Source: Flavobacteriales bacterium (GTDB lineage Bacteria; Bacteroidota; Bacteroidia; UBA10329). Taken from it: a stretch of DNA of 39,685 nt. Where the stretch lies: NCBI GenBank assembly GCA_041302955.1, contig JBFYQB010000072.1:1-39685 (forward strand), written 5' to 3'. Below, one piece after another: positions 6,136-34,104 of the stretch. A model generated the notes under the pieces. That model saw only the letters and a program-made list of their open reading frames with translations, was not told the DNA's origin and ran no database searches. A program made the translations under genes and the position numbers. Position 1 is the stretch's first letter. Each line of letters starts with the position of its first letter.

Positions 6136-6217
6136 GGATATTCAACACTCCAAGTCCCGAAAAGCTTTCGAAACGCTAATCTGCCGATAACCTGACCGCC
6201 TAAAATTCCCTCCTGCC

Positions 6218-6976
6218 ATGTCCCTCGTCCCTTCTCCCTTCCACTTTAAAGAGGGCGAGACCCTGCTGTTCGACAAGCCTCTAGGCTGGACATCCTTTCA
6301 GATGGTGAACCGTGTGCGGGGCATGATCCGCAGGAACATCAGCGAGCGCAACATCAAAGTGGGCCATGCGGGTACGCTCGACCCTTTGGCAACGGGCCTA
6401 TTGGTGCTGTGTACCGGCAAATCCACCCGCACCATCGAGACCATTCAGGCCGCTGAGAAGCAATATACCGGAACCATCTTCCTTGGTGCCACACGGCCCA
6501 GCTACGACATGGAAACGCCCGTGGATGCCACCTTTCCCACGGCCAACATCACCGAGGCGGCCATCACTGAGGCGGCCAAGACCTTTGAAGGCGCCATAGA
6601 CCAGATTCCGCCCATTTTCTCGGCCAAGATGGTGGAGGGCGAACGCAGCTACGACCTTGCCCGCAAAGGCGAGGCCAAGGAGTTGAAGGCCAACCGCATC
6701 ACTATCACCGCATTCCTCATCACCGGGGTGCGCACCGTTGATGGCGGGTTGGAGGCCGATTTTGATGTCACCTGTTCCAAAGGCACCTACATCCGCTCGT
6801 TGGCCCACGACCTTGGGCAGAAACTGGGCTGTGGCGGCTATCTGCAAAGTCTGCGCAGAACCCGCATCGGCAAGCACAAGGTGGAGGATGCGCTCACAGC
6901 CGAGCAGTTTCACTTCATTCTATTTGGCGAAGGTCCGAACAGGGAATTTGACGGAAGAATAAGCGGGAGGGATTGA
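6218..6976 (+). CDS. truB: tRNA pseudouridine(55) synthase
   Basis: 252 aa. The catalytic motif GHAGTLDPLATGLLVLCTG. Confidence 0.93.
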   Translation: MSLVPSPFHFKEGETLLFDKPLGWTSFQMVNRVRGMIRRNISERNIKVGHAGTLDPLATGLLVLCTGKSTRTIETIQAAEKQYTGTIFLGATRPSYDMETPVDATFPTANITEAAITEAAKTFEGAIDQIPPIFSAKMVEGERSYDLARKGEAKELKANRITITAFLITGVRTVDGGLEADFDVTCSKGTYIRSLAHDLGQKLGCGGYLQSLRRTRIGKHKVEDALTAEQFHFILFGEGPNREFDGRISGRD

Positions 6977-6984
6977 CCCTTCTA

Positions 6985-9509: not shown

Positions 9510-9519
9510 TTTCAGCTTG

Positions 9520-9527
9520 CAAACTTA
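9520..9527 (-). promoter_or_regulatory. Candidate -7 box (TAAGTTTG on the minus strand) upstream of the DAHP synthase gene
   Basis: Plus-strand caaactta is the reverse complement of TAnnTTTG. It lies only 11 nt from the first ATG, which implies a near-leaderless mRNA or a downstream true start. Confidence 0.35.
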
Positions 9528-9645
9528 CGTCTGCTGTAGGGAACAACCGAAGGAGAGAAGGGTTCAGTAATTCGGCAACTGCATGGTAAAGCGTACCAAA
9601 GGAACTGAGTTCACCTACATCGGTTCTTTTTGCGTCTTGGTCATT

Positions 9646-10881
9646 TCACCCCCGCACCATGCGCAATTGCGCAGCAGGCCGTATCACCTTGCTCACTGGC
9701 AGCCATGCGGCCAGCAGCCCTATGGTGAACACCGTTATCAGTACATAGACGACATCCAACGCCTGCACCTCGACAGGATATGCCTGAATGATGTAGGTAC
9801 CCGATGAACTGAGTGGCACGAACCCGAAGGTTATCTGCAACCAGCAGACCCCAAGGCCAAGCACAGCACCTATCACCGCGCCCGACATGGAGATGAAAAG
9901 TCCTTCGAGGATGAATATCCTGCGCACCAATGGCTCGCTGGCTCCCATGCTGCGCAAGATGTTGATGTCCTTCTTCTTGTCCAAGATCAGCATGGTCAGC
10001 GACCCGATCACATTGAAGATGCTCACCATAAGGATGAAGGCAAGAATCAGGAATACGGCCCATTTCTCGCTCTTCATGATCTTATAGAGCAGCTCGTTCT
10101 GCTGGTAGCGGTCCTTCACCACATAGGTATCGCCCAGCATTTCGGCAATACGGTCGCGTATGTCGGCCATGTTCGCATCGGGGCGCAGATAGACCTCTAT
10201 GGACGATACAACATCGGTATGCGCCAGCAATTTGCGCGTCAGGTCTATGGGCGCGATCACATACCCAAGGTCAAAGTCTTGCTGGATGGAGAACACGCCT
10301 GATGGGAACACGTGCTGCACTTGAAACGCCTTGCTGGGATCCATGCCACCCCGCATACCTCTGCGCGGCACATAGACCTCGATCGGATTGATGGGGTCGT
10401 TGAGGCCCGCTTCCAGAAAATAGGCCACGCCCGCCCCCATGATGATGCGCGATGCACCCTGTTCGTGCAGCAGCGGTTGTCCATCCGCGATCTTGGTGCC
10501 GATGCCCGAAGCCTGGATATAGTTGTCAGAAACGCCCTTGATCTTGGCGAAATACTGCTTGTCGCGGTAACGCAGCAGGCAGCTTTCTTCCAGCACATCC
10601 ACCGTTTCGCTTACGCCTTCCATGGCCTGTATCTCCTTCAGTGGAAAGCTGTCCAAGGCAATGGTCTTACCAAGGGCAGGCGTGATGCGCACGGGAGGTT
10701 CAGAAATATCGTAGAGCGAGATGACCAGCCCTTCAAACCCGTTGAACACCGACAGCACAACGATCATGGCCGCTGTGACCACCGCCACACCGCCCACCGA
10801 TATGGCCGAGATGATGTTGATGGCGTTGTGCGACTTCTTGCTGAAGAGGTAACGCTTGGCGATATGAAGGGGAAGGTTCAA
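9646..10881 (-). CDS. LolC/LolE-like (FtsX-family) ABC transporter permease
   Basis: 411 aa. N-terminus AKRYLFSKKSHNAINIISAISVGGVAV, a large extracytoplasmic loop, and a C-terminal FtsX-type 3-TM bundle. Confidence 0.85.
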   Translation of the reverse strand: MNLPLHIAKRYLFSKKSHNAINIISAISVGGVAVVTAAMIVVLSVFNGFEGLVISLYDISEPPVRITPALGKTIALDSFPLKEIQAMEGVSETVDVLEESCLLRYRDKQYFAKIKGVSDNYIQASGIGTKIADGQPLLHEQGASRIIMGAGVAYFLEAGLNDPINPIEVYVPRRGMRGGMDPSKAFQVQHVFPSGVFSIQQDFDLGYVIAPIDLTRKLLAHTDVVSSIEVYLRPDANMADIRDRIAEMLGDTYVVKDRYQQNELLYKIMKSEKWAVFLILAFILMVSIFNVIGSLTMLILDKKKDINILRSMGASEPLVRRIFILEGLFISMSGAVIGAVLGLGVCWLQITFGFVPLSSSGTYIIQAYPVEVQALDVVYVLITVFTIGLLAAWLPVSKVIRPAAQLRMVRG

Positions 10882-19643: not shown

Positions 19644-20609
19644 CTATTTCTTTTCTGATGGAGGTGTTGTTTCCAGTGTTCCGTTTTCACCGGCTGCAGC
19701 ATCAGCAATGGCTTTCTTTTTCCAGGGACGGAAGCGCACTCCTATCATTACTTCATGACTACCGTCTGAGTAGTTACGAAGATTAGATGTATTCATGTCG
19801 TAGCTATATCCGAACATCAAAAAATCCTTGTAAAGTAATCCGCCCATGAAAGAGACTGCATCATCATGGCGATAAGATGCACCGATCCAGAACTGATCGC
19901 GATAATCTAAACGCAGACCTGCGTCAAACTGCGGAGGAACAGGATACACATATTTCAATAACACATTCGGCATAATACCGAAATTGCCTACATGGAAAGT
20001 GTAAGCACCCATTAGCATAAAGTGACGTGCAAGGGCACTGGAACCATCTCCTTGTCCTGAGTCGAAACTAAGGTTGTTACCTATTATCTGTGGAGCAGAG
20101 AAACCAACAGTAAAGTTCTTGTGATAGAGATTAACACCGAATGTTGCATCTGCAGAGTACGCAGACATTACAGCATTAGGGAAAGCTGGATCTCCCTGTT
20201 GATAGAGGTCAACCTTGGTTCCATCAATTCTGAATTGAAGTATACCAATACTCAAACCCATGCCTAGACGCAGCTTATCAGATAGCTTGAGCTGATAGGC
20301 ATAAGAAATATGGGCTCCAGTGCGACTTGTAGGTCCTGTTACATCGGAGAAGATGGTAACACCCATACCCATGTTGTACTTCCTGAAGGGGCCATGCGCA
20401 GAAAGGATGAACGTGCGAGGTGCATCAGTGATACCGATCCAGTTGAGTCGGTTATTGGATTTGACCTCCCAAAAGTCATTTTTTCCTGTGATGGCAGGAT
20501 TCATCACATAATCATTCATCATGTACTGACTGTACTGAGGAATCTGCTGTCCCATCACAAATGGACCCTGCAAGAGTGCAACCACCGCTATGTATAGAAA
20601 TCTTTTCAT
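19644..20609 (-). CDS. PorP/SprF-family T9SS outer-membrane protein
   Basis: MKRFLYIAVVALLQGPFVMGQQIPQYSQYMMNDYVMNPAITG is the canonical PorP/SprF N-terminus, followed by a beta-barrel-like sequence. It lies immediately downstream of a type-B sorting-domain cargo gene. The ATG at 20609 is preferred over 20630. Confidence 0.85.
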   Translation of the reverse strand: MKRFLYIAVVALLQGPFVMGQQIPQYSQYMMNDYVMNPAITGKNDFWEVKSNNRLNWIGITDAPRTFILSAHGPFRKYNMGMGVTIFSDVTGPTSRTGAHISYAYQLKLSDKLRLGMGLSIGILQFRIDGTKVDLYQQGDPAFPNAVMSAYSADATFGVNLYHKNFTVGFSAPQIIGNNLSFDSGQGDGSSALARHFMLMGAYTFHVGNFGIMPNVLLKYVYPVPPQFDAGLRLDYRDQFWIGASYRHDDAVSFMGGLLYKDFLMFGYSYDMNTSNLRNYSDGSHEVMIGVRFRPWKKKAIADAAAGENGTLETTPPSEKK

Positions 20610-20644
20610 CTGTTTCTGATTGAGGTTCATCGAGTCTTGATGAT

Positions 20645-20694: not shown

Positions 20695-23600
20695 TCATCG
20701 AACAATTGTTATTGGTCCAGTGAAAGGCTGCTCGAAATTGTCAGAACGGATCACATAATAGTATGTGCCAACCGGAAGTTCGTTGCCATCATAACGTCCG
20801 TCCCATGGTATTGGATAACCTGGAGCAGATTGCCATAGCATTTGACCCCACCGATTGTAGATCTCCACGATGGCATCCTCAAATAACTCTATGTTATCAA
20901 TGATCCAAGTATCGTTGATACCATCTCCGTTTGGTGAAATTCCATCAGGGAATCTGATGCCTGGTACCACTTCAACAATTACAGAATCCACATTCGTGCA
21001 ACCATTCTCATCTGTTACTGTTACGTAGTATGTGGTTGATTCTATTGGAGTCGCTTGTGGGTTGGTCACGTTCGGATCATTCAAGGTCTCTATCGGTGCC
21101 CACGTGTAGGTCCACCCAGTTACCACACCATTAGCATTCAAGCCAATGGTTCCACCAGTTGGAATAGTCACGTCATTTCCTGCGTCAACTGTTGGAATGT
21201 TGTACATGGTCACTGTAACCGAATCGGCATCTACGCAGCCGCCTATATCCACAGTCAAGATGTATGTAGTAGTGACAATCGGATTCGCTATCGGATTGGC
21301 GGAATTGGGATTGCTCAAGGTTTCTGATGGACTCCATTGGTAGGAACCGCCACCCGCACCATTGAGTGGAATTGAATCTCCGACACAGAGGTTAATATCT
21401 GTTCCAGCATCTGCGTCAATATTCACCAGTGTTCCAATGCTGTATATCGCTACCAACTCACATCCAGTGGCATCTGTTATCGTCACTGTGTACGCACCAA
21501 AGAGCACGTTATTTAGGTCTTCAGTATTCGCGGAGCTCGGACTCCACTCAAAAGAATATGCTCCCACACCACCAGCAACTGTCAGATTTATCGATCCGTT
21601 TGCTACATTACTGCAGGTGGATGCAGATGTAGTGGCATTGGACACAAGAGCTGGAGGTCCAGAAACGGTAACACTGTTTTGAGTTACACACCCATTTGCA
21701 TCAGTTATGGTTACGGTGTAAGTGCCAACACACAGACCTGTAGCTTGCGACCCCGTTTGGTTTGAAGGGTCATTCCACAAATATGAATAGGGAGCCGTTC
21801 CGCCAACGGGTGTTGTTGTTGCCGTGCCATCACAAGCACCACCACAGGCTTCGTCCACCGCGGTGGTGGCGGTCAACAATAAAGCGGGTTGAGTTATGAT
21901 TACTGTAGCCTGTGTTGTACAGGCAGGGGATTGAGAATCTACAACAGTAACCACATAGTTGCCTGCGCAGAGACCAGTAGCTGTTTGTGAGCTTTGATTG
22001 AAAGAATCACTCCATGAGTACGAAAATGGGCCAACGCCACCAGTTGTGAACACAGTGGCCGTACCGTCACAATCTCCATTGCAAGTGACAGAAGTGAATA
22101 CGGGCACCCCAGCGGCTAGTGCGCCATTATCATTAATGCTCACAGTAGCAGTTGCCGTACACCCGATATCGTCTGTAATTATAACTGTATGATCTCCAAC
22201 ACATAAACCAGTGGCCGTGGTACCTGTTTGTCCATTCGACCATTGATAAGTGAAAGGTGGTGTTCCTCCAACACCTTGCACAGTCGCCTGCCCTGTGCAA
22301 CTTCCTGAGCACAACACTTGAACCGTAGAGGTAATGTTCGCATTCAGAATAGGTGGCTCAGTCAGTTGGAAATCAACCGTATCAGAACATAGACTGGCAT
22401 CAATAACTATTACAGAATATTGACCTGCGCAAAGGCCTGTGATAGTATTTCCGACACCAAAATTAGACCAGATGACGGTATAGGGCGCAGTACCACCAGA
22501 AATGTTCACTGTTGCCTCTCCATCGCATACTCCACCGCAGCTGGCATTTATCGTGGTAACGGTCGCAACCAGTACAGGTGGTTCTGTTATTGTCACAGAA
22601 GCAGTAGTGGCACATCCATTGGCATCGGTAATCGTTACGGTATAAGTGCCAGCACATAAATTAATTGCCGAAGCTGAGGTCTGTCCATTCGGATCATCCC
22701 ATAGGAACGAATAAGGGGCGGTACCACCTTGGGTCAACACTGTAGCTACACCATCGCAAAGACCCCCGCAAGAGATGTTGATGCCTTGTCCGATAGACAC
22801 AAGTGGAAGTGGTTCAGTAACGATTGCTGCACTGGCGTTTGTACAGCCATTCGCATCAGTGACAATAACGTTATAGATTCCTGGGCACAAGGCCGTAACG
22901 GTGTCATTTTGAGTAAGTGCTGGGTCTGTCCATTGATAATCATAGGGTGCAGTTCCACCTGTAGCAGATACATAGACCTCGCCATCGCAATCCCCATTGC
23001 AGCTTACACCTTGAGCAGATGTGGTTACAATAATGTCAGATGGCTCCGCAATGGTCACTTGAGTCGAGTCCTCACAACCAGCAATATCTGTTACAACAAC
23101 TGTATAGACGCCCGCACAGAGTGCTACAACAGTATCATTTGCAGTCAGCAAAGGGTCATTCCAAGTAAATGAGAATGTACCAGTACCTCCAGAAGCTGAA
23201 GCATATGCTTCGCCATCACACACCCCAAAACAGGAAGCATCCAGACTTGAAGTATTTATAACAATAGCATTCGGTTCATCTATAGTTATTGCAGAAGTTA
23301 CTGAACAGCCATTCGCATCACTAATTGTGGCAGTGTAGACTCCTGCGCAAAGTCCAGTTGCGGTGGGCAGGTTACCACCAGAAGGAGACCAACTAACGGT
23401 GTAAGGAAGAGTTCCCCCAGAGGCAATGATGGTAACTTCTCCATCGCATGCTCCAAAGCAACTAGCATCTGTTATCAAGGGCAGGCTGACAGAGATTACA
23501 GTTGGCTCGCTTATAGTGACCTGACCAACAGTAATACATCCATTTGCATCCGTAACAGTGACACTGTATGAACCTGCACAGAGCCCTGTAGCATTGCTAG

Positions 23601-26600
23601 TCGTTTGAGTAGCAGGGTCATTCCAGTTAAAGGAGTAAGGTGCTGTTCCACCAGTTGCGGTTACAGTAGCTGTTCCATCACATGTTCCATTGCAAGAAAC
23701 ATCGGTGCTAATAGTACTTAGCAGTGGGCCGTTGACATTATTTACTGGTACCACTACCGAAGCATTACATCCGCTACCGTCCGTTATAGTTACAGCATAA
23801 GTTCCTGACGCCAATCCCGTTGCTGAGTTTGTAGACGAGACATTAGGATTCCAAGAATAGGTGTAAGGACCTCCGTCACCTCCAGATGGCGTTAGGGTTA
23901 TACCGCCATTTGCACTTCCACAAGTGGCAGGGATGGATGAATACGAAGGAATGATCTGAGCAGGTTCAGAGATAGTTACAGCTTGTGTGAATATACATCC
24001 CAGACTATCTATTATCTGTAGATTGTAGACACCAGCACAAACTCCTGATATAGAACTTGAGGTCTGGCCTCCTGGCACCCATAGGTAAGTGTAAGGAGCG
24101 GTACCACCAACAATGTTGTTAACGGAAGCCGAGCCATCACAAACTCCGAAGCAAGAAGCATCAGTAGTTGTAACTGTCGCGCTTGTTGGAGCCCCATCAT
24201 TATTTACTGGAATGATGAAATTCTGTATGCAACCAAATTGATCGATAACATCAACATTGTATACCCCTGGGCACAGTCCTGTTACAGTTGAGGTTGTTTG
24301 GCCATCGCCCCACAGGTATGTATATGGCTGAACACCACCCGTGGGTGCTACGCTTGCTTGTCCATTACATTGTCCACAGGTCGCATTTGTAACAGTAGAA
24401 TTCGCAGTGATCTCCGTTGGCTGGAAGATGTTCACAGAAGCATTTGCAATACAGCCATTCGCATCCGTAACAATAACATCATAAGGTCCAGGACAAAGAT
24501 TTGATGCTGTGATAGTGGATTGCCCATTAGGGTCATTCCATTGGTAGGAGTATGGAAATGTACCACCTGTTGTGAAGGCCGTTGACGTTCCATCGCAAAT
24601 GCCAAAACAGTCTGGATCGTTGGCAGTTGTGCTCGCAGACAGTACAGCAGGTTGAGCAATGATAACAGTAGAAATAGATATACATCCGTTTGCATCCGTC
24701 ACAGTAACGGATGTTGCTCCTGGACATAATCCATTAGCAACCGTTCCAGTTTGGTTGGCAGGGTCATTCCATTGATACGTGTAGGGTGCGGTTCCACCAG
24801 AGGCAGTTACCGTAGCCGTACCGTCACAAGCAGCATTACAAGAAGCATTCACCTGAGATGTGATTACTGAGGTCAATCCATTCGGTCCTGTAATGGAAAC
24901 CGAGGCCGTTTGGACACAGCCATTTGCATCAACCACCGAAACAATATAACTGCTAGCGCAAAGTCCCGTTGCAGTCTGGGTTGTTTGCGATGCTGGATCA
25001 CTCCATGTTATAGAGTACGGACCAACACCTCCGGTGACATTTGCAGTAGCCTCACCTACACAGACTCCGTCACATTGAAGGTTTATGATATTACTGAAAG
25101 CAATGTTGATTGGTGCGGGTTCATTTATGGTGATACTTACCACAAAATCACAATTGTTCGCATCGGTCACCGTTGCACTATAAGTTCCTGCGCACAGCCC
25201 AGTGGCAATTGCGGTGGTCTGTGCGGCTGGATCGTCCCATAAGTAATTGAATGGAGCGGTTCCGCCTTGAACGGTCACTGAGGCAGTGCCATCACAAATG
25301 CCATTGCAGGTAACATCTGTACCCACTACAGAGGCAGTAAGCCCGACAGGATTATTCACTGTTCCATTAACAACATCAGTACATCCATTTGCATCTGTTA
25401 CAACTACAGAATATGTGCCCGCACATAAGTTTCCAGCGGTCGCAGTGATCTGAGTGGCAGGGTCATTCCACTGATAAGTAAAGGGAATGGTTCCACCTGA
25501 AGGAATCACTGTAATAGCGCCATCACAATTGCCAGCACACGTTCCGTTGTCGATAATAAGCAGCGAAAGACCGATTTGATCTGGAGCCTCAATCGTGGTC
25601 TGACCCACTGAAATACAACCATCCGCGCCTGTAACGGTAACGGTGTAAAGCCCTTCGCAGAGACCACTTGCTGTTGCAGTGGTTTGCGTGCCAGCATCAT
25701 CCCATACAAAGCTGAATGGGGCCGTACCACCTGTGGTGGTTACAGTTGCACTGCCATTGCAGGCAGCGTCACAAAGCGGATCTGTACCTACTACAAATAG
25801 CGTTGCAGATGGAAAATCATTCAACAATACCGTCACAGGTTCTTCGCAACCTGTAGCATCCGTGACTGTGATGTTATAGACACCAGCACACAAACCTGAT
25901 GCATTTGATACGTTGCCTACAACAGCAGGTGACCAATCGTAAGTGAATGGGGCAACTCCAGATATGGGAGTGAGCGCAATAACACCATCACATAGACCAC
26001 AGCTCGAGTTAGTAACGGTTTGGCCAATTTGAATTTGTGCCGGGGACCCAATAGTAACAGGTTCTGTATAAATACATCCGTCCGCATCCTGAATCTGGAC
26101 GAAGTAAGTTCCAGCACAAAGACCAGACGCGCTGTTCGTGTTTTGTCCACCTGGTACCCACTGATAGGTATACGGAGTAGAGCCACCGACAGGGTTTAGC
26201 GTAGCAGAGCCATCACAAATGCCAAAACAGCTGGTATTTGTGATCACAGGATTACCAGAGGTTGGACCTGTAGTATTGTCAACAGGAACAAAAAATGTAT
26301 TGGTACAGCCGTTGGCATCGGTCACTTCAACCTGATATATTCCAGCACATATGTTGTTCAAAGTTGAGTTGGTTGCGCCTGTATTCCATAGGTATGAATA
26401 GGGTGCCTGACCATTAGATGGTGTAACAGTCACACTGCCATCGCACACTCCGCAAGAAGCATCGGTTACGCTAGAGGAAATTTGTATTGGAACTGGTTCG
26501 TTAACTGTGGCCAGTGAGTCGTTGCTGCCTGATCCACCGAAATTCAGACTCCAATCGAATATGAAACCATCATCTATGCTGAGATTATCCGTAACGGTGA

Positions 26601-29600
26601 CGGTCCAGTTACCATTCAGAGGACAACCTATAAAGCCATTGAAGGACTGGAAAGGAGTGTAGGTGCCCGGGGTCATTGAATTACTAGGAGCATTACCCGC
26701 TGTGACCCAGTTTCCGTTCGTGTTCTCTTGCAGAATTGTTCCAAAGGATGCAGTTGCAGAGAAACAATATTCGGCACCAGTTCCAGGAGTTCCATTTGCG
26801 CCCGCATCATTTGCCGCGCCAAGATAGGTGCCTGCGCCTCCAGGGTATTGCTTCAAAACCACGGTCTGGCCGTTTGGACATGTAAGACTCATCTCCAGAT
26901 CACCAAGATAGGAGTGCTCCATATTGATACAGATATCTTGAAGGTCTGTGGCAGATGTGATGGTGCTATTGGAAGGGAATCCGGTAATGGCAATCGAAGT
27001 GTTGTAAGAAACGCCATTACCATCAGGTAAAGCCAAAGTTCCACCCGCAAACGATCCCCCTAATGTTATCTGACTTGATGTGCAACCATTCGCATCGGTT
27101 ACTACTACAGAGTAATCTCCAACAGGCAGGTTATTGATGTCCTCAGTGGTTTGGCCGCCTGGGAACCACTGATATATGTACGGTGCTGTGCCGCCTGTTA
27201 CGGTCATATCAATAGAACCGTCAGAGGCACCATTACAACTCACATCGGTAACATCCAATGTGATAATGATAGGACTCGGTTCGGTAATGGAAACTGTTTG
27301 CTGTACAGAGCAACCTATATTATCCGTGGCGGTGAATGTATAAGTTCCAGCGCAGAGACTCGAAAGACCAAGGCCTGTGCTTCCAGAGGGCTGCCATAAG
27401 TATGTGAATGGAGCATTACTTCCCGTTACCGTAGCTGTAGCAGTTCCATCACAATCCCCATTGCAACTCACATTGGTGCTTGCCATTGATACTTGAATCT
27501 GATTGTCATTTATAGTGAATTGAGCTATATCAGAACAACCATTGGCATCTGTAACCAATACTTGATAAGAACCTCCACACAGGTTGCTAATGCTAGCACC
27601 GGTTCCTATGTTCGGTGTCCACGTATAAGTGTACGGAGCTGTACCTCCCGTCACGTTTACACCTGCCGTTCCGTTACATGACCCATTGCAAGTTGCATTT
27701 GTGGAAGTAGGATTAAGCAGGAAAGTATTTGGCTGAGTAATGGTAATTGAGAGATTATTGCTACATCCTTGATTGTCTGTAACCGTTACTGTATAGAGTC
27801 CTGGACCAAGGTTGCTAAGATCTTGCGTTACCTCCCCACCGGGAAGCCATGAATAGGTATAAGGTGCGACACCTCCAGATACCGAAAGATTGATAGAACC
27901 ATCATTTGCGCCACTGCAGGAAACATTAACATGAGTTTCTGTAAGTACAATTTGTGGGGACTGATTGATTGTGAATTGACCAGTAATTGAGCATCCGCTG
28001 GCATCGGTAGCAACACCAATGTAAGTGCCTGCCGCAACATTGATAAGATCTTCCGAATTTATGTTTCCAGGATTCCACACCACAGAATATGGTGCTGTTC
28101 CACCAAACAGGGTAACATCTATCGAGCCATTAGTCGCACCGAAACAGCCTACGGGAGTAATGTTTAACTGACCTCCGAGATTTGGTGGTGTTGTCAACGT
28201 GAATGACTGCGTGACCTGACAACCTGTACCTTGATCGGTGATAATTACATTATAGGTTCCCCCAGAAAGGTTGCTCAAATTCTGAGTGCTCGCTCCATTT
28301 GACCAAGTATAAGTGAACGGCCCCACACCACCAGAAACGACAAGACTTATAGAACCGTTGGACGTTCCTGTGCATGTTGGATTGACGGCAGTACCACTTA
28401 CTGATGGCGACCCTTGGTTATTTAGGTTCAGTGTGGTATCAAATGAACATCCGTTAAGATCGGTCACTGTAACCGTATAAAGACCAGCTCCCAAACCACT
28501 GATGTCTTCCGTAATAGCACCGTTGGACCAAACAAATGAATAAGGGGCACTACCACCTGTAACGCTCACATTGATTGCGCCATTGATGAGCCCACAGGAA
28601 GGTGAAGTTGGAGCACTTGTCACCACCAGTTCGTTACCTGCTTGAACTGGGAATGATCCGAATGCTACACATCCAGTTATATTGTCAGTTACTGTGACAA
28701 CGTATGTGCCATCAGCAAGTCCACTTATATCTTCGGTTGCAGGGCCATTTGACCAACTGTAGGTGAAGTCACCGCTTCCATCCGTAACAGACACATCAAT
28801 CGAGCCATTGTTAGAGACACAATTTGTTCCATCGGTCACTACGCCATCCACAGTGTGACCAGGAAAATTATTTACGATTACAGTAACCTGCTCTGAACAA
28901 CCAAGAACGTTATCTACAACAGTAACATCATAAATCCCAGCCGCCAAACCACTTAGGTTCTGAGTTGATTGTCCACTAGGGAGCCAAGTGTATCCATAGT
29001 TTCCAGAACCGCCCAACACCGTAAGATTGATGCCACCGTCAGACGCACCACACGCTGCGCTGCTGCTGATGTAGGAGACCAAAAGCGTTGAACCATCAAT
29101 TATAGTAACTGGCAAACTTGCCGTACAACCATTATCATCGGTCACAGTGACCACATAAAATCCTGCACTCAAACCATTTAAATCCTGCGTAACCGCGCCA
29201 TTGGACCAGCTGTAACTATAAGGTGCGGTGCCTCCAGAAACGGAGATGTTTATTGCACCATTTGCGAGACCATCACAACTAACATTCGTGTGTGTCTCAG
29301 TGATTGTAATGGGAGATGGTTGCGACACCGTAACTGCTGGAGGAGTGAAGGTGCAACCTATGTCATCTGTTACGGTAAGGGTGTAGGAACCGGCATCAAG
29401 GCCCGCTATATCTTCAGTTATCTGACCATCAGGAGACCACAGGAAAGTATAAGGCGGTGTTCCGCCAAATGTTCCCGAGGATGATATCGCACCATCTGTA
29501 CCACCATTGCAGCTTACATCCGTAGGTGTCAATGTAACAGACCAATCAGGCTCTTGGTTAATGGTATATGGTTGGCTTTGGGAACATCCATTATCATCAG

Positions 29601-30141
29601 TCACGGTCATGCTATATGTTCCGGAATTGAGTCCATTTACCGATGTGCCAGTATTGGGAAATGGGAGCCATGAGTACGTGTACGGTGCCACGCCACCCGT
29701 TACCACTACAGAAGCCTGCCCGTCATTGCTATCGGGGCAGGTTTCATCAATGGTGGAAAGTTGAATATCGAATGGAGCGGGGTCATTGATGGTGACAAAA
29801 TCCAAAACACCGGGGCAGCTACCACCAACGCCATTTTGACCAACAACGATTATTTGATAATCTGAAATGCCAGCACCCAAACCTGTGAATTGGTATGTTG
29901 TGCTTGCTTGAGGCCCAGAAGATTGAAAGAAAGGGCCGTTAAAAATCTGAAATGTGTAGGTCGGAAAACCACCCGAAATAGTTATACTTATGGTTCCATC
30001 ATTGGCGCCACTGCATGTGACGTCAGTAGCTACAATGGATTGAATAACGACAGGACATTGAGCTTTGGAGTTTTGATAGCTGAAAAAGCTGAAAGCAGCT
30101 ATCAGAAACAGCAGTGGGGTAATGCGTAGAGTTCGCGTCAT
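20695..30141 (-). CDS. Giant (3148 aa) SprB-repeat cell-surface protein with an embedded P-domain-like module and a T9SS type-B (gliding-motility-associated) C-terminal sorting domain
   Basis: Signal peptide MTRTLRITPLLFLIAAFSFFSYQNSKAQ. There are 35 repeats of the form C..(DG)...V.GG.(A/P)PY.Y.W....(L)(C)AG.Y.V.V.D.NGC. The C-terminus is FPDGISPNGDGINDTWII...VEIYNRWGQMLWQS...WDGRYDGNELPVGTYYYVI (TIGR04131-like). Confidence 0.9.
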   Translation of the reverse strand: MTRTLRITPLLFLIAAFSFFSYQNSKAQCPVVIQSIVATDVTCSGANDGTISITISGGFPTYTFQIFNGPFFQSSGPQASTTYQFTGLGAGISDYQIIVVGQNGVGGSCPGVLDFVTINDPAPFDIQLSTIDETCPDSNDGQASVVVTGGVAPYTYSWLPFPNTGTSVNGLNSGTYSMTVTDDNGCSQSQPYTINQEPDWSVTLTPTDVSCNGGTDGAISSSGTFGGTPPYTFLWSPDGQITEDIAGLDAGSYTLTVTDDIGCTFTPPAVTVSQPSPITITETHTNVSCDGLANGAINISVSGGTAPYSYSWSNGAVTQDLNGLSAGFYVVTVTDDNGCTASLPVTIIDGSTLLVSYISSSAACGASDGGINLTVLGGSGNYGYTWLPSGQSTQNLSGLAAGIYDVTVVDNVLGCSEQVTVIVNNFPGHTVDGVVTDGTNCVSNNGSIDVSVTDGSGDFTYSWSNGPATEDISGLADGTYVVTVTDNITGCVAFGSFPVQAGNELVVTSAPTSPSCGLINGAINVSVTGGSAPYSFVWSNGAITEDISGLGAGLYTVTVTDLNGCSFDTTLNLNNQGSPSVSGTAVNPTCTGTSNGSISLVVSGGVGPFTYTWSNGASTQNLSNLSGGTYNVIITDQGTGCQVTQSFTLTTPPNLGGQLNITPVGCFGATNGSIDVTLFGGTAPYSVVWNPGNINSEDLINVAAGTYIGVATDASGCSITGQFTINQSPQIVLTETHVNVSCSGANDGSINLSVSGGVAPYTYSWLPGGEVTQDLSNLGPGLYTVTVTDNQGCSNNLSITITQPNTFLLNPTSTNATCNGSCNGTAGVNVTGGTAPYTYTWTPNIGTGASISNLCGGSYQVLVTDANGCSDIAQFTINDNQIQVSMASTNVSCNGDCDGTATATVTGSNAPFTYLWQPSGSTGLGLSSLCAGTYTFTATDNIGCSVQQTVSITEPSPIIITLDVTDVSCNGASDGSIDMTVTGGTAPYIYQWFPGGQTTEDINNLPVGDYSVVVTDANGCTSSQITLGGSFAGGTLALPDGNGVSYNTSIAITGFPSNSTITSATDLQDICINMEHSYLGDLEMSLTCPNGQTVVLKQYPGGAGTYLGAANDAGANGTPGTGAEYCFSATASFGTILQENTNGNWVTAGNAPSNSMTPGTYTPFQSFNGFIGCPLNGNWTVTVTDNLSIDDGFIFDWSLNFGGSGSNDSLATVNEPVPIQISSSVTDASCGVCDGSVTVTPSNGQAPYSYLWNTGATNSTLNNICAGIYQVEVTDANGCTNTFFVPVDNTTGPTSGNPVITNTSCFGICDGSATLNPVGGSTPYTYQWVPGGQNTNSASGLCAGTYFVQIQDADGCIYTEPVTIGSPAQIQIGQTVTNSSCGLCDGVIALTPISGVAPFTYDWSPAVVGNVSNASGLCAGVYNITVTDATGCEEPVTVLLNDFPSATLFVVGTDPLCDAACNGSATVTTTGGTAPFSFVWDDAGTQTTATASGLCEGLYTVTVTGADGCISVGQTTIEAPDQIGLSLLIIDNGTCAGNCDGAITVIPSGGTIPFTYQWNDPATQITATAGNLCAGTYSVVVTDANGCTDVVNGTVNNPVGLTASVVGTDVTCNGICDGTASVTVQGGTAPFNYLWDDPAAQTTAIATGLCAGTYSATVTDANNCDFVVSITINEPAPINIAFSNIINLQCDGVCVGEATANVTGGVGPYSITWSDPASQTTQTATGLCASSYIVSVVDANGCVQTASVSITGPNGLTSVITSQVNASCNAACDGTATVTASGGTAPYTYQWNDPANQTGTVANGLCPGATSVTVTDANGCISISTVIIAQPAVLSASTTANDPDCFGICDGTSTAFTTGGTFPYSYQWNDPNGQSTITASNLCPGPYDVIVTDANGCIANASVNIFQPTEITANSTVTNATCGQCNGQASVAPTGGVQPYTYLWGDGQTTSTVTGLCPGVYNVDVIDQFGCIQNFIIPVNNDGAPTSATVTTTDASCFGVCDGSASVNNIVGGTAPYTYLWVPGGQTSSSISGVCAGVYNLQIIDSLGCIFTQAVTISEPAQIIPSYSSIPATCGSANGGITLTPSGGDGGPYTYSWNPNVSSTNSATGLASGTYAVTITDGSGCNASVVVPVNNVNGPLLSTISTDVSCNGTCDGTATVTATGGTAPYSFNWNDPATQTTSNATGLCAGSYSVTVTDANGCITVGQVTISEPTVISVSLPLITDASCFGACDGEVTIIASGGTLPYTVSWSPSGGNLPTATGLCAGVYTATISDANGCSVTSAITIDEPNAIVINTSSLDASCFGVCDGEAYASASGGTGTFSFTWNDPLLTANDTVVALCAGVYTVVVTDIAGCEDSTQVTIAEPSDIIVTTSAQGVSCNGDCDGEVYVSATGGTAPYDYQWTDPALTQNDTVTALCPGIYNVIVTDANGCTNASAAIVTEPLPLVSIGQGINISCGGLCDGVATVLTQGGTAPYSFLWDDPNGQTSASAINLCAGTYTVTITDANGCATTASVTITEPPVLVATVTTINASCGGVCDGEATVNISGGTAPYTVIWSNFGVGNTITGLCAGQYSVIVIDASLCSDTVDFQLTEPPILNANITSTVQVLCSGSCTGQATVQGVGGTPPFTYQWSNGQTGTTATGLCVGDHTVIITDDIGCTATATVSINDNGALAAGVPVFTSVTCNGDCDGTATVFTTGGVGPFSYSWSDSFNQSSQTATGLCAGNYVVTVVDSQSPACTTQATVIITQPALLLTATTAVDEACGGACDGTATTTPVGGTAPYSYLWNDPSNQTGSQATGLCVGTYTVTITDANGCVTQNSVTVSGPPALVSNATTSASTCSNVANGSINLTVAGGVGAYSFEWSPSSANTEDLNNVLFGAYTVTITDATGCELVAIYSIGTLVNIDADAGTDINLCVGDSIPLNGAGGGSYQWSPSETLSNPNSANPIANPIVTTTYILTVDIGGCVDADSVTVTMYNIPTVDAGNDVTIPTGGTIGLNANGVVTGWTYTWAPIETLNDPNVTNPQATPIESTTYYVTVTDENGCTNVDSVIVEVVPGIRFPDGISPNGDGINDTWIIDNIELFEDAIVEIYNRWGQMLWQSAPGYPIPWDGRYDGNELPVGTYYYVIRSDNFEQPFTGPITIVR
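21440..30057 (-). repeat. Protein-level array of 35 SprB-type repeats (~75-80 aa each), interrupted at 26539-27060
   Basis: Counted by eye from GG-x-x-P-(Y/F)-x-(Y/F)-x-W signatures: 13 repeats N-terminal and 22 C-terminal to the interrupting module. The repeats have diverged at the DNA level. Confidence 0.85.
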
Positions 30142-30382: not shown

Positions 30383-31198
30383 TCAAAAGACAAACTTGAT
30401 ACGGGAAAGGTCCTCTCTAGTTTCAAAATGGAGTATGTAAACGCCAATAGACAAGTTGTCATGTACGATATGAAAATGATTTGGGCCTTCAAGAACGTTG
30501 ACCGTGCCTTCAATCAAGAGACTACCGAAGGCGCTGAGCAGTTTGAATTTGGCTACGGAGGCATTTGAAGAGACATACTCAACATGAATTTCATTCGAAA
30601 CGCGGTCTACCTGCAATACGAGGCCATTGACTTCACTGTTCTCACCAATGCCATTTGGTTCCTCTATACGAAGAGAATAGGTCTTGTCGTAGAGCGTGTG
30701 CAAGCCTTGAGAGAGTTCAAATTCGGTTGGAATTCCAGGTATTGGAGTCCCAGATAGCGCAAGAATTTGTGCCATATCCAAAATCCCCCGAGTGTACGAT
30801 GCTATTTCTACTTGAAAATCTCCAGATTCTGAAGGGGCATCGCCAAACACGATTGATCCAGTGGAATTGCTATTGAATCTACAGGTTGATGGAGTACAAA
30901 CTTTTGTCATCCCCAATGGCAAGCCAGAAACCGAAAACTCTATGCTGGTTATTGTCAATGGAAGCATCATTCCATTTATCTCAGTGATGAAGAGTGCCAA
31001 AGGTGGAAATTGTTGAATCAACATTGCTGACACATCAGCACCACTTACAGTTGTATTTGAGGGAATTGTTGCCAAAACGTAGTTGGAATACTCTTGTCCG
31101 AGTTCGCCATCTGGCAAAGCAGGTACATCAGGGTTGAAAATCTGTGATCTTAATAGTAAAGGGCAAAATATCAGAAGGAGCAGACAGACTTTAGACAT
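30383..31198 (-). CDS. Secreted protein with an Ig-like (He_PIG-like) segment and a T9SS type-A C-terminal domain
   Basis: Signal peptide MSKVCLLLLIFCPLLLRSQ. FSVSGLPLGMT...GSIVFGDAPSESGDFQVEI resembles putative-Ig repeats. The C-terminus FKLLSAFGSLLIEGTVNVLEGPNHFHIVHDNLSIGVYILHFETREDLSRIKFVF is a sorting tail. Confidence 0.7.
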   Translation of the reverse strand: MSKVCLLLLIFCPLLLRSQIFNPDVPALPDGELGQEYSNYVLATIPSNTTVSGADVSAMLIQQFPPLALFITEINGMMLPLTITSIEFSVSGLPLGMTKVCTPSTCRFNSNSTGSIVFGDAPSESGDFQVEIASYTRGILDMAQILALSGTPIPGIPTEFELSQGLHTLYDKTYSLRIEEPNGIGENSEVNGLVLQVDRVSNEIHVEYVSSNASVAKFKLLSAFGSLLIEGTVNVLEGPNHFHIVHDNLSIGVYILHFETREDLSRIKFVF

Positions 31199-31328: not shown

Positions 31329-33125
31329 ATGAAGAAGCTGCATTCCATTTTTGAAGGATTTTTCTCTATTGATACTCGTACGCTTGCCTTTGTACGAGTT
31401 CTCACAGGACTTGTAATCATCATGGATCTCATTTCGAGATCGATGGACCTGACTTCCATGTACACTGATCAAGGTGTACTTCCACGTACTATGCTTCTCA
31501 GTGCTGCGAATAACTGGACCTTTTCTGTACATGCAATTGGAGGATCATACATGTTTGTGACATTCATGTTTCTGCTTGCTGGGGTGTTTGCGCTCATGCT
31601 CAGTTTGGGGTATCGCACAAGATTGATGACCATTCTCTCTTGGCTTATGGTGATGTCCATTCAAAATCGCAATCCATTGGTATGTTATGGTGGTGATTCT
31701 GTGCTCAGGATGTTGCTTTTCTGGGGCATGTTCGTGCCTTGGGGGGCTAAATATTCCATTGATAGCCTGCGTTATGGATTCAATAGTCTGTCTGACCATC
31801 TTCCGAAGAAGATATTTACCATGGGCACAATCGGGATGACACTTCAGGTGCTTTACATCTATCTGTTCACAGCCCTTTTCAAGAATGGACCTGAATGGCA
31901 TGCAGATGGTACGGCCGTATATTTTGCCATTGCTATAGACGAGTTAGCTTCCCGGTTCAACTTTATTCTCAGAGAAATCCCTGTAGACTTTCTGAAAGGC
32001 ATGACTTGGACAGTACTTGCTTGGGAATGGATAGGACCTTTTGTTGTTGCATGGCCGCATTGGAAAGTACGCGTTGTAGGACTTATCGGTTTTTTCCTCC
32101 TTCAGTTGAGCTTTTTCACCTTTATGGTCTTAGGGCTATTCCCAGTGTTCAGCACATTGGCCATATTAATATTCGTGCCTTCGGAGGTATGGGACAAGTT
32201 GGAGGGATACTTTATTAAGTCTCGTCAGCGAAACCTAAAAATATACTACGACCCAAGCTGTGGTTTTTGCCAACATGTGGTGATTGCATTGAACCGTTTC
32301 CTTTTGTTCGATTCTGCTCAGTTGATTCCGGCCAACATGGATTCTTCAATTCATGATCAGCTTAGAAAGAACAATTCATGGGTGGTAAAGGATGAAATTG
32401 GACATACCTATTTGAAAGGCCAAGCATTGATCGCTGTTTTCAACCATTCACCACTATTTTGGCCAATAGGTAAGTTACTTGGCCTGCTAAAAAACGTTCT
32501 TGATAAGATATACATTGCTATAGCTAACAATCGGCCTGAATGGCCTGCATTTCAACATTTTCCTAATGGTCTGATCTCGCGCTATTCCACTACTCAGTCA
32601 ATGGCAGTCATGGTTCTAGCACTTTGGTGTTTATTGTACATCACGTTGTTCAACTTTCACAAGTATGACGAGACCGCTTTACCTGTGCCAAAATCTTTGA
32701 TCTGGGTATCTGGCATATTCAAGGTCGATCAGAACTGGGCCATGTTTGCCCCAGCACCATATCGGGCAGATGGTTGGTTTGTGATTCCAGCTGAGCTTGC
32801 CAATGGAGATACCGTTGACATCTTTAAAAATGGAGCTCCTGTAAATTGGAATAGACCAGAACGAGTGGCCGCTACATATAGGAACACACGTTGGAGCAAA
32901 TATTTGAGGACTATTCGGCAGCCCAAATACAAGACCGCACTGAAGCATTATGTGCGTTGGCTATGGCGTGATTGGGACAAGAATCATCCATCAGATCAGC
33001 GACTTCAGAAATTCCAAATGTTCTTTGTGATGGAGACCAACTTGGCGGACTGGGAGACTGCGCCACCAAACAAAATCGCGCTATGGTCGCAGGATTGTAG
33101 AAAAAATTCGGAGTTGATAAGGTGA
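31329..33125 (+). CDS. Fusion protein: HTTM (vitamin-K gamma-carboxylase/SdpB-like) membrane domain + DCC (DUF393) CxxC thiol-disulfide oxidoreductase + C-terminal TM/soluble domain (possibly SdpA/DUF5819-like)
   Basis: aa 1-~297: FSIDTRTLAFVRVLTGLVIIMDL, YRTRLMTILSWLMVMSIQNRNP and GGDSVLRMLLFWGMFVPWG (HTTM pattern). aa ~303-405: KIYYDPSCGFCQHVV (DCC signature, Cys codons at 32259-32270). aa ~410-598: one TM helix, then DQNWAMFAPAPYRADGWFVIP. Confidence 0.85.
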   Translation: MKKLHSIFEGFFSIDTRTLAFVRVLTGLVIIMDLISRSMDLTSMYTDQGVLPRTMLLSAANNWTFSVHAIGGSYMFVTFMFLLAGVFALMLSLGYRTRLMTILSWLMVMSIQNRNPLVCYGGDSVLRMLLFWGMFVPWGAKYSIDSLRYGFNSLSDHLPKKIFTMGTIGMTLQVLYIYLFTALFKNGPEWHADGTAVYFAIAIDELASRFNFILREIPVDFLKGMTWTVLAWEWIGPFVVAWPHWKVRVVGLIGFFLLQLSFFTFMVLGLFPVFSTLAILIFVPSEVWDKLEGYFIKSRQRNLKIYYDPSCGFCQHVVIALNRFLLFDSAQLIPANMDSSIHDQLRKNNSWVVKDEIGHTYLKGQALIAVFNHSPLFWPIGKLLGLLKNVLDKIYIAIANNRPEWPAFQHFPNGLISRYSTTQSMAVMVLALWCLLYITLFNFHKYDETALPVPKSLIWVSGIFKVDQNWAMFAPAPYRADGWFVIPAELANGDTVDIFKNGAPVNWNRPERVAATYRNTRWSKYLRTIRQPKYKTALKHYVRWLWRDWDKNHPSDQRLQKFQMFFVMETNLADWETAPPNKIALWSQDCRKNSELIR

Positions 33126-33179
33126 AAAGGAAATTCGTATAAATTCGTGGCCTCCTTCAAACCTATTCAATAAACTGAC

Positions 33180-34046
33180 ATGAAAAAAAATTACTTGGTT
33201 GGCGGCATCACCGCAATTGCATTCTTTTCTGTAGTAGGCTATGACTATTACACTGGCAACGTTTCTCTTTTTGCGAAGAAAGCCGTTGAAAATGGCCCAT
33301 CTGGAATTGCTGACGTTTCTGGAGATCAGGATGTGAACCGTGGAGGTGTGGCTCCCTTGGGCGGTATTGCTGACCTTGGTGCAAACAGCGACCTTCTTGC
33401 AAATTCGGACGTTATTGGCGGATTGGCGGACATCTCTGCTACTGCCGACATTTCTGCTACTGCTGACATTTCTGCTGTGGCTGACATTTCTGCTACTGCT
33501 GATATTTCTGCTGTTGCCGACATCTCAGCTACCGCTGATATTTCTGCTACTGCTGATATTTCTGCTACCTCTGACCTTCTTGCCAACTCTGACCTTCTTG
33601 GTGGTCTAGCTGATCTTGGTGCAAATAGCGACCTTCTTGCCAATTCTGACCTTCTTGGTGGATTGGCTGATATTTCTGCTACTGCTGACATCTCTGCTAC
33701 TGCCGATATTTCTGCAACGGCCGATATCTCTGCTACTGCTGATGTATCAAGCAACGGTACGGGTATTGAGGAAGATTTCGCTGCTGGTAAGGTAGCCGTA
33801 TATAACTTCCCAAACCCTGCGACCGAAATCACGAACTTCCGTTTTCAGTTGAACGAAGGTTCTTTGGTACGTATCGTTCTATATGGTGCGAATGGTCAGA
33901 TGGTGGCAATGCCGCTTAACAAACAATACGGCCCAGGTGAATACGTTCATTCTTTCGATGTGAGCAGTCTTACTCCAGGTACATATGTATACTCTTACCA
34001 GTTGGGCAATCGCATGCCAGTTATGCGTAAGCTGATCATTAAATAA
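33180..34046 (+). CDS. T9SS-targeted hexapeptide-repeat protein (ADISAT / SDLLAN / GGLAD units)
   Basis: 288 aa. N-terminal hydrophobic signal or anchor (MKKNYLVGGITAIAFFSVVG), ~21 consecutive 6-7 aa units each ending in Asp, and a C-terminal type-A sorting tail (VAVYNFPNPATEITNFRFQL...GTYVYSYQLGNRMPVMRKLIIK). It starts 54 nt after the HTTM-fusion stop with no terminator between. Confidence 0.8.
   Translation: MKKNYLVGGITAIAFFSVVGYDYYTGNVSLFAKKAVENGPSGIADVSGDQDVNRGGVAPLGGIADLGANSDLLANSDVIGGLADISATADISATADISAVADISATADISAVADISATADISATADISATSDLLANSDLLGGLADLGANSDLLANSDLLGGLADISATADISATADISATADISATADVSSNGTGIEEDFAAGKVAVYNFPNPATEITNFRFQLNEGSLVRIVLYGANGQMVAMPLNKQYGPGEYVHSFDVSSLTPGTYVYSYQLGNRMPVMRKLIIK
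33357..33743 (+). repeat. In-frame 18-bp tandem repeat array with higher-order duplication
   Basis: 8 units of att/atc-tct-gct-act-gct-gac at 33432-33575 and 4 units at 33672-33743. Each block is preceded by a ~60-nt duplicated module (33372-33431 and 33612-33671) encoding LGANSDLLANSD(V/L)(I/L)GGLAD. Confidence 0.95.
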
Positions 34047-34070
34047 GAGGTATATTCATTCTTGATATGG

Positions 34071-34104
34071 GAGGCTGACCTTTTAAGGTCAGCCTCTTTT
34101 TTTT
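34071..34104 (+). terminator. Rho-independent terminator of the HTTM-fusion/repeat-protein operon
   Basis: gaggctgacc (34071-34080), loop ttttaa, ggtcagcctc (34087-34096), then T8. It lies 25 nt after the stop at 34046. Confidence 0.8.

Follow-up and report, generated by a model that had tools for sequence, protein, structure and literature searches.

A 39,685-nucleotide contig of a Flavobacteriales bacterium (GenBank assembly GCA_041302955.1, contig JBFYQB010000072.1), referred to here as the window, encodes a small secreted protein whose middle part is an array of short units that each end in Asp. An earlier note, made from the sequence alone, had drawn attention to this repeat. Directly upstream and on the same strand lies a gene for a polytopic membrane enzyme that combines a predicted HTTM domain, a relative of vitamin K-dependent gamma-carboxylase (GGCX) and of SdpB, with a DCC1-like domain. 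The main value of the finding is this conserved pairing of an HTTM-DCC1 protein with an Asp-repeat cargo of the type IX secretion system (T9SS), which was absent from the earlier note. The locus consists of the following features, in positions of the window:

31329 to 33125, plus strand: gene for the HTTM plus DCC1-like polytopic membrane protein of 598 amino acids (aa), from Pfam, hhalign and hydropathy
31881 to 31883, plus strand: codon of Lys185, invariant in 23 homologues and aligned with GGCX Lys218
33126 to 33179, plus strand: intergenic spacer of 54 bp, with no terminator-like site in the terminator scan
33180 to 34046, plus strand: repeat-protein gene, 288 aa, without Cys and without Trp
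33180 to 33323, plus strand: N-terminal hydrophobic signal or anchor (aa 1 to 20) and juxtamembrane segment (aa 21 to 48), from alignment A1
33326 to 33832, minus strand: antisense open reading frame (ORF) of 168 aa, an artifact of the stop-free repeat and not a gene
33357 to 33743, plus strand: 21 Asp-terminated units (aa 60 to 188), from the translation split after each Asp and Tandem Repeats Finder
33479 to 33532, plus strand: 54-nucleotide stretch of three ISAxxD units that is missing in contig L090, an in-frame copy-number polymorphism
33744 to 33806, plus strand: linker VSSNGTGIEEDFAAGKVAVYN, directly before the sorting domain
33807 to 34043, plus strand: type-A T9SS C-terminal sorting domain (aa 210 to 288; PF18962, TIGR04183)
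34069 to 34098, plus strand: terminator-like intrinsic hairpin with a 13-bp stem and a T-run, from the terminator scan, which closes the two-gene unit

Because a terminator-like site follows the gene pair and none lies between the genes, the enzyme and repeat genes are probably co-transcribed.

The array extends from Leu60 (nucleotide 33357) to Asp188 (nucleotide 33743) and is made up of 18 units of six residues and three of seven. Its first half reads LGGIAD, LGANSD, LLANSD and VIGGLAD, followed by eight ISAxxD units (five ISATAD, two ISAVAD and one ISATSD) and an LLANSD-LLGGLAD bridge; LGANSD, LLANSD, LLGGLAD and four ISATAD units follow the bridge, which joins two modules of the form LGANSD-LLANSD-xxGGLAD-(ISAxxD)n, with n of 8 and 4. 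Tandem Repeats Finder detected a period of 18 with 17.1 copies and 72% matches between positions 33429 and 33742, and the two copies of the LGANSD-LLANSD-xxGGLAD module are 86% identical at the DNA level. The 12 ISAxxD units have a mean nucleotide identity of 82%, with 2 of the 66 unit pairs being identical. Six of the nine variable sites in these units are third codon positions, pairwise codon differences are synonymous in 142 cases versus 31 nonsynonymous ones, and amino acid changes are limited to Thr to Val (twice) and Ala to Ser (once). The peptide, and not the DNA, is therefore under constraint, as the earlier note had proposed. That note had also described about 21 Asp-ending units, including 12 ISAxxD units, with the same three amino acid changes; 21 units were counted here, and splitting the translation at Asp reproduced its array organization (n of 8 and 4, joined by the LLANSD-LLGGLAD bridge) exactly.

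As multiple frames are open over the repeat, the array could be no real protein feature at all, being instead a noncoding tandem repeat or an assembly artifact. This explanation has a negligible probability and is effectively refuted already. The 168-aa antisense ORF was rejected as a gene, its translation being merely the reverse-complement repeat (SAVAEI...), whereas the plus-strand ORF bears a signal segment, a sorting domain and full-length homologues. The plus frame is considered genuine because it links a conserved N-terminal hydrophobic segment to an above-threshold sorting domain and has homologues over its full length. Furthermore, more than 12 independent assemblies keep the reading frame through insertions and deletions of whole units, and the synonymous excess is strong.

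The N terminus of the repeat protein is hydrophobic by inspection (MKKNYLVGGITAIAFFSVVG), with a core of 17 to 18 residues, and is followed by a juxtamembrane segment of the form YDYYTGNxSxFAKK...IADVSG. Nearly all columns of aa 1 to 48 are invariant in the alignment, making this the best-conserved part of the protein; mean pairwise identity is 88% over aa 1 to 34 versus 69% for the sorting domain, and an F..Y...YN pattern is found again at the N termini of the distant lineages represented by contigs L006, L094 and L009. Judged from the aligned proteins, such conservation is unusual for a mere signal peptide and, together with the length of the core, would be compatible with an uncleaved anchor. 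Toward the C terminus, the linker carries a GTGIE(E/D)DF motif that is kept in most of the window clade. The sorting domain exceeded the cut-offs of both Por_Secre_tail (PF18962; 35.3 bits, cut-off 27, E 1.4e-8) and TIGR04183 (31.5 bits, cut-off 23, E 1.3e-7) and was modeled by AlphaFold2, with a five-sequence alignment, as a beta-sandwich with predicted local distance difference test (pLDDT) values of 72 to 82. The repeat protein belongs to the T9SS type-A cargo class. The window itself also encodes T9SS machinery, namely, PorP/SprF (E 4e-79) and an adhesin that bears SprB repeats and a CHU_C domain. Without its signal segment and sorting domain, the protein has approximately 170 residues, of which about 145 are repeat; the acidic region has a net charge of about -24 over approximately 158 residues and contains no Lys, Arg or Cys.

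In full-length orthologues, the N terminus and the sorting domain are nearly unchanged, while the middle is rewritten. The units are ISALAD and ISAAATAD (six and eight residues) in L002 and L004; SGDVSD, MMAD and DPGDLLAD in L001 and protein P0003; LLADSD and LGANAD in L005; and LGANSD and LLANSD in L003. The dominant spacing of Asp, 6 in the window, is accordingly 6 and 8 in L002 and L004, 3 to 4 in L001 and P0003, 2, 4 and 6 in L005, and 3 in L006 and L094. Asp is preceded by a small residue (Ala, Gly, Ser, Asn, Thr or Gln) in 79 to 97% of cases and followed by an aliphatic one in 52 to 97%. The kept feature, as far as these sequences tell, is the local [Ala/Gly/Ser/Asn/Thr/Gln]-Asp-[Leu/Ile/Val/Met] motif and not the period. 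Lys and Arg are virtually missing from the region in the family, and Cys is absent from all 15 family proteins.

The number of units varies even between close relatives. L090, a contig from a metagenome-assembled genome of the same species with approximately 98% nucleotide identity, differs from the window by a single 54-nucleotide gap and 19 mismatches in a global alignment of 813 nucleotides, and its ISAxxD run has 5 units where the window has 8. Likewise, three contigs with identical upstream HTTM-DCC proteins differ by one 16-aa module, which is present once or twice. We read the array as a short motif whose tandem copies are gained and lost quickly, within a polyanionic chain that is flexible.

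The earlier note had instead suggested a strict six-residue period and a possible beta-solenoid. In such a fold, the hexapeptides would stack as a left-handed beta-helix or as a Ca2+-dependent roll that forms only extracellularly, and the resulting Asp/Thr/Ser ladders would bind Ca2+, mineral or ice. Several observations agree with such a fold. ISATAD matches the hexapeptide pattern [LIV]-[GAS]-x-x-[STAV]-x, the LpxD model of NCBIfam gave a weak match (14.3 bits versus a cut-off of 207, E 0.017), the deletion in L090 is exactly 18 residues or one beta-helix turn, and ISATAD, judged by its mean hydropathy and net charge, would lie on the "foldable" side of the Uversky charge-hydropathy line by our own estimate, made with no tool. 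RTX repeats, which are rich in Asp and Gly and bind Ca2+, provide a precedent for disorder until Ca2+ is bound (PMC3034196). However, pLDDT values over the repeat were 33 to 51, with no secondary structure, when AlphaFold2 was run without an alignment and 30 to 48 with the five-sequence alignment, and neither run placed strands in aa 55 to 200. A Pfam scan of the repeat protein gave no match to Hexapep or RTX/HemolysinCabind (PF00353) at E<=1, and the repeat by itself retrieved no relative in a sequence search of PDB. The array also departs from the RTX nonapeptide GGxGxDxUx, as its units have six or seven residues with an aliphatic residue directly after Asp. The seven-residue units break the register within the window; the 8-mers (ISAAATAD), 16-aa modules and Asp spacings of 3 to 4 in orthologues cannot share one geometry, and a period of 3 conflicts with the alternation of a beta-strand. 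As Asp spacings vary among orthologues, one fixed solenoid geometry therefore cannot fit, and we consider this fold decidedly improbable. The array resembles Hexapep (PF00132) and RTX (PF00353) proteins in its short period and in the fixed placement of an aliphatic residue within the units but differs from them in giving no profile match and no confident model and in not keeping its period among orthologues.

Pfam assigned the sorting domain only. LED_rpt (PF20854) was the sole repeat family giving any signal, the window protein scoring 16.1 bits and the L005 orthologue, which is rich in LLADSD, 39.5 bits (E 6.5e-10), both short of the 59-bit cut-off; this resemblance may be compositional only, and no literature on the LED repeat family was found. 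Membership in the hexapeptide, RTX and LED-repeat families was tested and rejected. A profile search of 1.84 billion representatives returned a single 50%-identity cluster, the protein's own family, at E<1e-30, and the rest of the 20,665 matches looked like sorting-domain-only matches. The only informative analogue from this search was P0126; P0127, P0138, P0174 and other matches over long stretches were rejected as unrelated proteins. A search with the L006 repeat protein yielded mostly compositional matches in eukaryotes and Patescibacteria and to a spirochaete-like protein. Contig L097 (positions 1025 to 3157) encodes an unrelated, non-secreted 710-aa protein, P0274, with long DLGDLGDS repeats and without a signal peptide, T9SS tail or HTTM neighbor; a TPR protein is encoded downstream of it.

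The description of the array in the earlier note as part of a T9SS-tailed protein that is secreted or surface-located is supported by sorting-domain scores above curated thresholds, and the statement that the repeat comes from no described family holds, with Pfam recognizing the sorting domain only, LED_rpt below threshold and no relative in PDB. The copy-number variation for which it proposed a comparison with related genomes is evident from the 8 versus 5 units. The six-residue period is interrupted by three seven-residue units in the window and gives way to spacings of 8, 4 and 3 residues in orthologues. The beta-solenoid or left-handed beta-helix is likewise not borne out, given pLDDT values of at most 51, the absence of Hexapep, RTX and PDB matches and a period that orthologues do not keep. 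The note had named low-confidence disorder together with homologues from a well-annotated family as what would speak against its view; the models indeed show low-confidence coil over the repeat, but the homologues are not a well-annotated family of known function. What remains of the earlier account is thus a secreted, undescribed, peptide-constrained and copy-number-variable protein, without the solenoid and with an adjacent HTTM-DCC1 gene that had been overlooked.

The product of that adjacent gene comprises the predicted HTTM region (approximately aa 14 to 290), a DCC1-like thiol-disulfide oxidoreductase domain (aa 305 to 406; Pfam E 2.9e-6) with a CxxC motif at C311/C314, a transmembrane segment (aa 425 to 443) and a conserved C-terminal domain (aa 444 to 598). 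By analogy with GGCX, the DCC1 domain would be cytoplasmic and the C-terminal domain periplasmic, hydropathy being too crude to place them. Among 23 homologues, 9 match HTTM (best E 2.9e-13) and 21 match DCC1-like, and some also match Pfam LMF1 (lipase maturation factor). The C-terminal domain (aa 440 to 598) had no Pfam match, including DUF5819. The NCBIfam SdpB family (TIGR04033) matched the window enzyme below threshold (E 2e-4; 21.1 bits, cut-off 178.4). In hhalign, the family profile (aa 22 to 293) aligned with residues 59 to 314 of human GGCX, using a sequence 100% identical to PDB 13ib_A, with a probability of 80.7% and an E value of 1.3e-5. The columns K185-K218, W190-W223, N113-N159 and R114-H160 were paired in this alignment. 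In GGCX, Lys218 is the base that deprotonates vitamin K hydroquinone, and Asn159 and His160 are ligands of the substrate carboxylate.

The HTTM-DCC gene and the repeat gene were found together well beyond the window, with the former directly upstream on the same strand in 14 of 14 loci and separated by gaps of 28 to 99 bp. Seven of these loci were reached through the repeat protein (window, L001 to L005 and L009), and all seven have HTTM-DCC directly upstream. The other seven (L006, L008 and L090 to L094) were reached through the enzyme, as close or intermediate Flavobacteriales HTTM-DCC homologues; in all seven, the gene directly downstream encodes an acidic-repeat protein that has a signal segment and, wherever the ORF is complete, a T9SS tail (the ORF of L094 is cut by the contig end). 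The outer flanks vary among loci and include genes for aldehyde dehydrogenase, LepA, SmpB, an SprB-like adhesin and shikimate-pathway enzymes. The pair spans three lineages whose enzymes are mutually 30 to 40% identical and whose repeats are of different types, namely, ISATAD-type in the window clade, (D-[LIVM]-x)n with Asp at every third residue approximately 110 times in L006 and L094, and GD/GE-Leu/Ile in L009 (P0126). No acidic-repeat partner was found by the HTTM-DCC gene in L007, L095 and L096; an acidic ORF in L007 was discarded, being antisense of a called gene.

This pairing bears on another explanation, according to which the array is an unmodified flexible acidic spacer or surface brush and lies beside HTTM-DCC because the two are co-regulated or because the enzyme acts in chaperoning or export, like LMF1 or SdpB, and does not modify Asp chemically. 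Its composition, rapid gain and loss of units and low-confidence models are typical of spacers, some enzyme homologues match LMF1, HTTM-DCC proteins are without known function, and His160 of GGCX is not kept. However, the mature protein has no globular domain to space, purifying selection retains the [small]-Asp-[aliphatic] motif as the period and length change, the pairing persists down to 30 to 40% enzyme identity, and the catalytic Lys is invariant. We therefore regard a passive spacer as unlikely, though deserving of serious consideration.

Other genes around the unit were also compared. In the window, the SprB-repeat protein (3148 aa, with 34 SprB repeats and a CHU_C type-B T9SS signal) is encoded at positions 20695 to 30141 on the minus strand and adjoined by the PorP/SprF gene (19644 to 20630, minus strand); this gliding-adhesin pair sits immediately upstream of the HTTM-DCC/repeat unit. 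A large minus-strand gene occupies the position of the SprB gene in L001, L004 and L090 to L093 (SprB/CHU_C was confirmed in L091 only), and L003, L005, L006 and L008 are without one. A 271-aa ORF at positions 30383 to 31198 (minus strand) had no Pfam match; an ORF of 271 aa is likewise placed divergently upstream of HTTM-DCC in L090 and L005. In L001, a second small T9SS-tailed protein (approximately 251 to 262 aa; positions 9133 to 9921, plus strand) is encoded after the repeat gene, at which position the window has an aldehyde dehydrogenase gene on the opposite strand.

Overall, we lean, by analogy, toward a reading of the array as the functional body of a small T9SS cargo, a flexible polyanion that serves as the client, and probably the substrate, of the upstream HTTM-DCC1 enzyme. 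This suggests an enzyme-substrate pair that is undescribed; no description of the repeat or of the HTTM-DCC1/Asp-repeat pairing was found in the literature. Going beyond the architecture, synteny and conservation of the motif and Lys, we infer the following sequence of events. The Sec pathway would export the repeat protein, whose conserved N-terminal anchor and juxtamembrane segment would dock on the HTTM protein in the manner of the propeptide of GGCX substrates. The repeated [small]-Asp-[aliphatic] motifs would then be processed at the periplasmic face, and the sorting domain would carry the product via the T9SS to the cell surface or medium, where it could act as a cation-binding (Ca2+) polyanion. 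The leading candidate chemistry, which is speculative, is menaquinol-dependent carboxylation of Asp, with the CxxC-containing DCC1 domain providing cofactor redox. As the client has no Cys, a role of this domain in cofactor redox is more probable than one in forming client disulfides. Flavobacteria produce menaquinone, which is vitamin K2. A menaquinone-dependent HTTM-DCC1 carboxylase could, by analogy, processively convert the periodic Asp residues of the T9SS cargo into beta-carboxy-aspartate or a related dicarboxylate; the N-terminal segment would then be the propeptide and [small]-Asp-[aliphatic] the repeated recognition site, and the chain would bind Ca2+ or mineral strongly. We consider this specific chemistry rather doubtful.

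Among known systems, the pair would appear to work most like that of GGCX and Gla proteins or that of SdpB and SdpC. Previous research has shown that GGCX binds a propeptide located between the signal peptide and the Gla domain and then processively carboxylates Glu, each Glu being presented as a hydrophobic-Glu dipeptide anchor (PMC12647623). Similarly, the polytopic, predicted HTTM enzyme described here keeps the catalytic Lys (K185, equivalent to K218), and its proposed client has a putative signal peptide, a conserved putative docking segment and acidic residues that are each flanked by a hydrophobic residue. In contrast to GGCX and its substrates, however, the acidic residue is Asp instead of Glu, the order within the dipeptide is reversed, with the hydrophobic residue in second place, and there are tens of low-complexity sites instead of 9 to 13 in a folded Gla domain; the enzyme differs in having Arg for His160, an inserted DCC1 CxxC domain and no detectable relationship in the lumenal domain. 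For the gene pair described here, carboxylation is a candidate chemistry. Staphylococcal SD-repeat proteins, with the adjacent glycosyltransferases SdgA and SdgB, and serine-rich repeat glycoproteins are examples of length-polymorphic multi-site substrates. These share with the present pair a low-complexity surface repeat that is, or here would be, a substrate of an enzyme encoded by a neighboring gene. They differ from it in Ser glycosylation, in the use of sortase or accessory Sec, in an unrelated enzyme family and in the role of the repeat, which is a stalk for folded adhesin domains there; such domains are absent here.

A bacterial HTTM enzyme that acts on an aspartyl residue is MloH, from malonomycin biosynthesis in Streptomyces, which carboxylates this residue according to Law et al. 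(2018), as related in PMC12186529 and PMC12647623. The substrate of MloH is an intermediate of a nonribosomal peptide synthetase-polyketide synthase pathway and not a ribosomal secreted protein, and MloH is without DCC1, a T9SS link or repeats. HTTM-DCC1 proteins themselves have been predicted in GGCX-like assemblies with adjacent partners that have a single transmembrane segment (bioRxiv 10.64898/2026.08.19.745780). In Bacillus subtilis, the HTTM-family protein SdpB shares an operon (sdpABC; likewise yitPOM) with a Sec-exported client, and SdpA and SdpB are both needed for the maturation of this operon-encoded SdpC (PMC6818787). The present loci are comparable in that an exported client is encoded adjacent to the enzyme and on the same strand in 14 of 14 cases and that the window enzyme is a weak SdpB match. 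SdpC yields a 42-aa hydrophobic toxin containing a disulfide, in contrast to the Cys-free acidic repeat with its T9SS tail and the lack of immunity genes observed here.

The operon logic of sdpABC (PMC6818787) also allows a reading in which HTTM-DCC processes the repeat protein, as an SdpC-like precursor, to a toxin or signaling peptide, the active product being the conserved N-terminal segment instead of the repeat. The NCBIfam SdpB match (E 2e-4) and the fact that the N-terminal 34 to 48 residues are the best conserved of the repeat protein fit this scenario. However, the SdpB score of 21 bits falls far below the cut-off of 178, and there is neither a Cys pair nor a C-terminal hydrophobic toxin domain. 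The neighbors include aldehyde dehydrogenase and an SprB-like adhesin, with no immunity or regulator genes nearby, and the T9SS sorting domain implies that the whole chain is exported. A toxin or signaling-peptide precursor is thus very improbable.

Several points weigh against the favored view of the array as a client or substrate of the HTTM-DCC1 enzyme. The link between enzyme and repeat protein is one of guilt by association, and all loci were assembled from metagenomes and represent a taxonomically narrow set of Flavobacteriales, mostly from fresh water. A survey of 80 more remote HTTM-DCC loci (28 to 37% identity; metagenomes of many habitats) detected no acidic T9SS protein downstream of the enzyme gene (0/80), so that the pairing is restricted to certain lineages. 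P0274 has LGD-type acidic repeats without an HTTM neighbor, which indicates that such repeats arise independently and alone are not diagnostic. The window enzyme itself gave no PF05090 (HTTM) match at E<=1, its HTTM domain being assigned through homologues and the 80.7%-probability hhalign match. Profile and single-homologue searches of PDB returned no GGCX match, and comparison of the C-terminal profile with GGCX residues 350 to 560 in hhalign gave a probability of 0.5%, with no similarity to the lumenal domain. R114, which aligns with His160 of GGCX, is an invariant Arg in the 23 HTTM-DCC homologues, and the hydrophobic anchor residue that precedes the acidic residue in GGCX substrates follows Asp here. 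The Arg may point to another substrate (Asp) or to another chemistry, and together with the reversed order it calls for caution in assuming GGCX-like specificity. Finally, as the AlphaFold2 alignment was shallow (five sequences), a Ca2+-induced fold of the repeat is possible.

Only three of the 80 distant loci (L033, L047 and L052) have any Asp-repeat neighbor. Their Asp-repeat ORFs all lie directly beside the enzyme gene, an arrangement that is suggestive but statistically weak. In L033, a 1000-aa protein with approximately 96 consecutive TGGD units and a PEP-CTERM-like C-terminal tail (PASLSLAALGGLWILRTRRK) is encoded at positions 1939 to 4941 (plus strand), ending 45 bp upstream of HTTM-DCC (4986 to 6764), and is possibly an equivalent Asp-repeat client from a lineage that lacks T9SS. 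Small secreted proteins are encoded after each HTTM-DCC gene on the metagenome contigs L047, where HTTM-DCC is duplicated (genes at 1792 to 3696, 3844 to 4218, 4660 to 6549 and 6680 to 7207), L052 (1153 to 3078 and 3617 to 4123) and L056 (5010 to 6896, 6994 to 7290 and 7467 to 7838). A C-x3-C-P-(P/D)-AG motif with Asp/Thr/Gly-rich repeats occurs in those of L047 (6680 to 7207), L052 and L056 (7467 to 7838); the repeat kinds across these small proteins are GDTDDGGP, TDGG and TTG, with (GDTDDGGP)n in L047 and TDGG/DDGG in L052. In L052 and L056, a large gene comes next whose product has an N terminus that is YjbH-like by eye. In L095, a 37%-identical HTTM-DCC is followed by a 169-aa protein (5016 to 5525, plus strand) that combines a single transmembrane segment and a Pro/Thr linker with a small domain containing Cys; it had no Pfam match and may represent another kind of partner.

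HTTM proteins, homologous to the vitamin K-dependent carboxylase, are widespread among bacteria. The only kinds for which an assigned role was found in the literature are MloH, with a small molecule as its substrate, and SdpB, which has no assigned chemistry, and HTTM-DCC1 fusions are annotated by domain names only. The pair described here is kept from 80% down to 30% enzyme identity and thereby provides a concrete and easily testable candidate substrate. Should the link between the two proteins be untrue, the array would be an ordinary length-polymorphic acidic surface repeat. If it is true, the pair would offer a way into the function of a large family of orphan enzymes, a post-translational modification of Asp that is possibly new in bacteria, and a novel type of T9SS cargo that works through a modified low-complexity chain and not through a folded domain. 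Categorical novelty is conditional on a demonstrated modification of Asp. If Asp carboxylation is true, the repeat proteins would be the first natural protein substrates for a bacterial homologue of vitamin K-dependent carboxylase and a bacterial, ribosomally encoded counterpart of Gla proteins.

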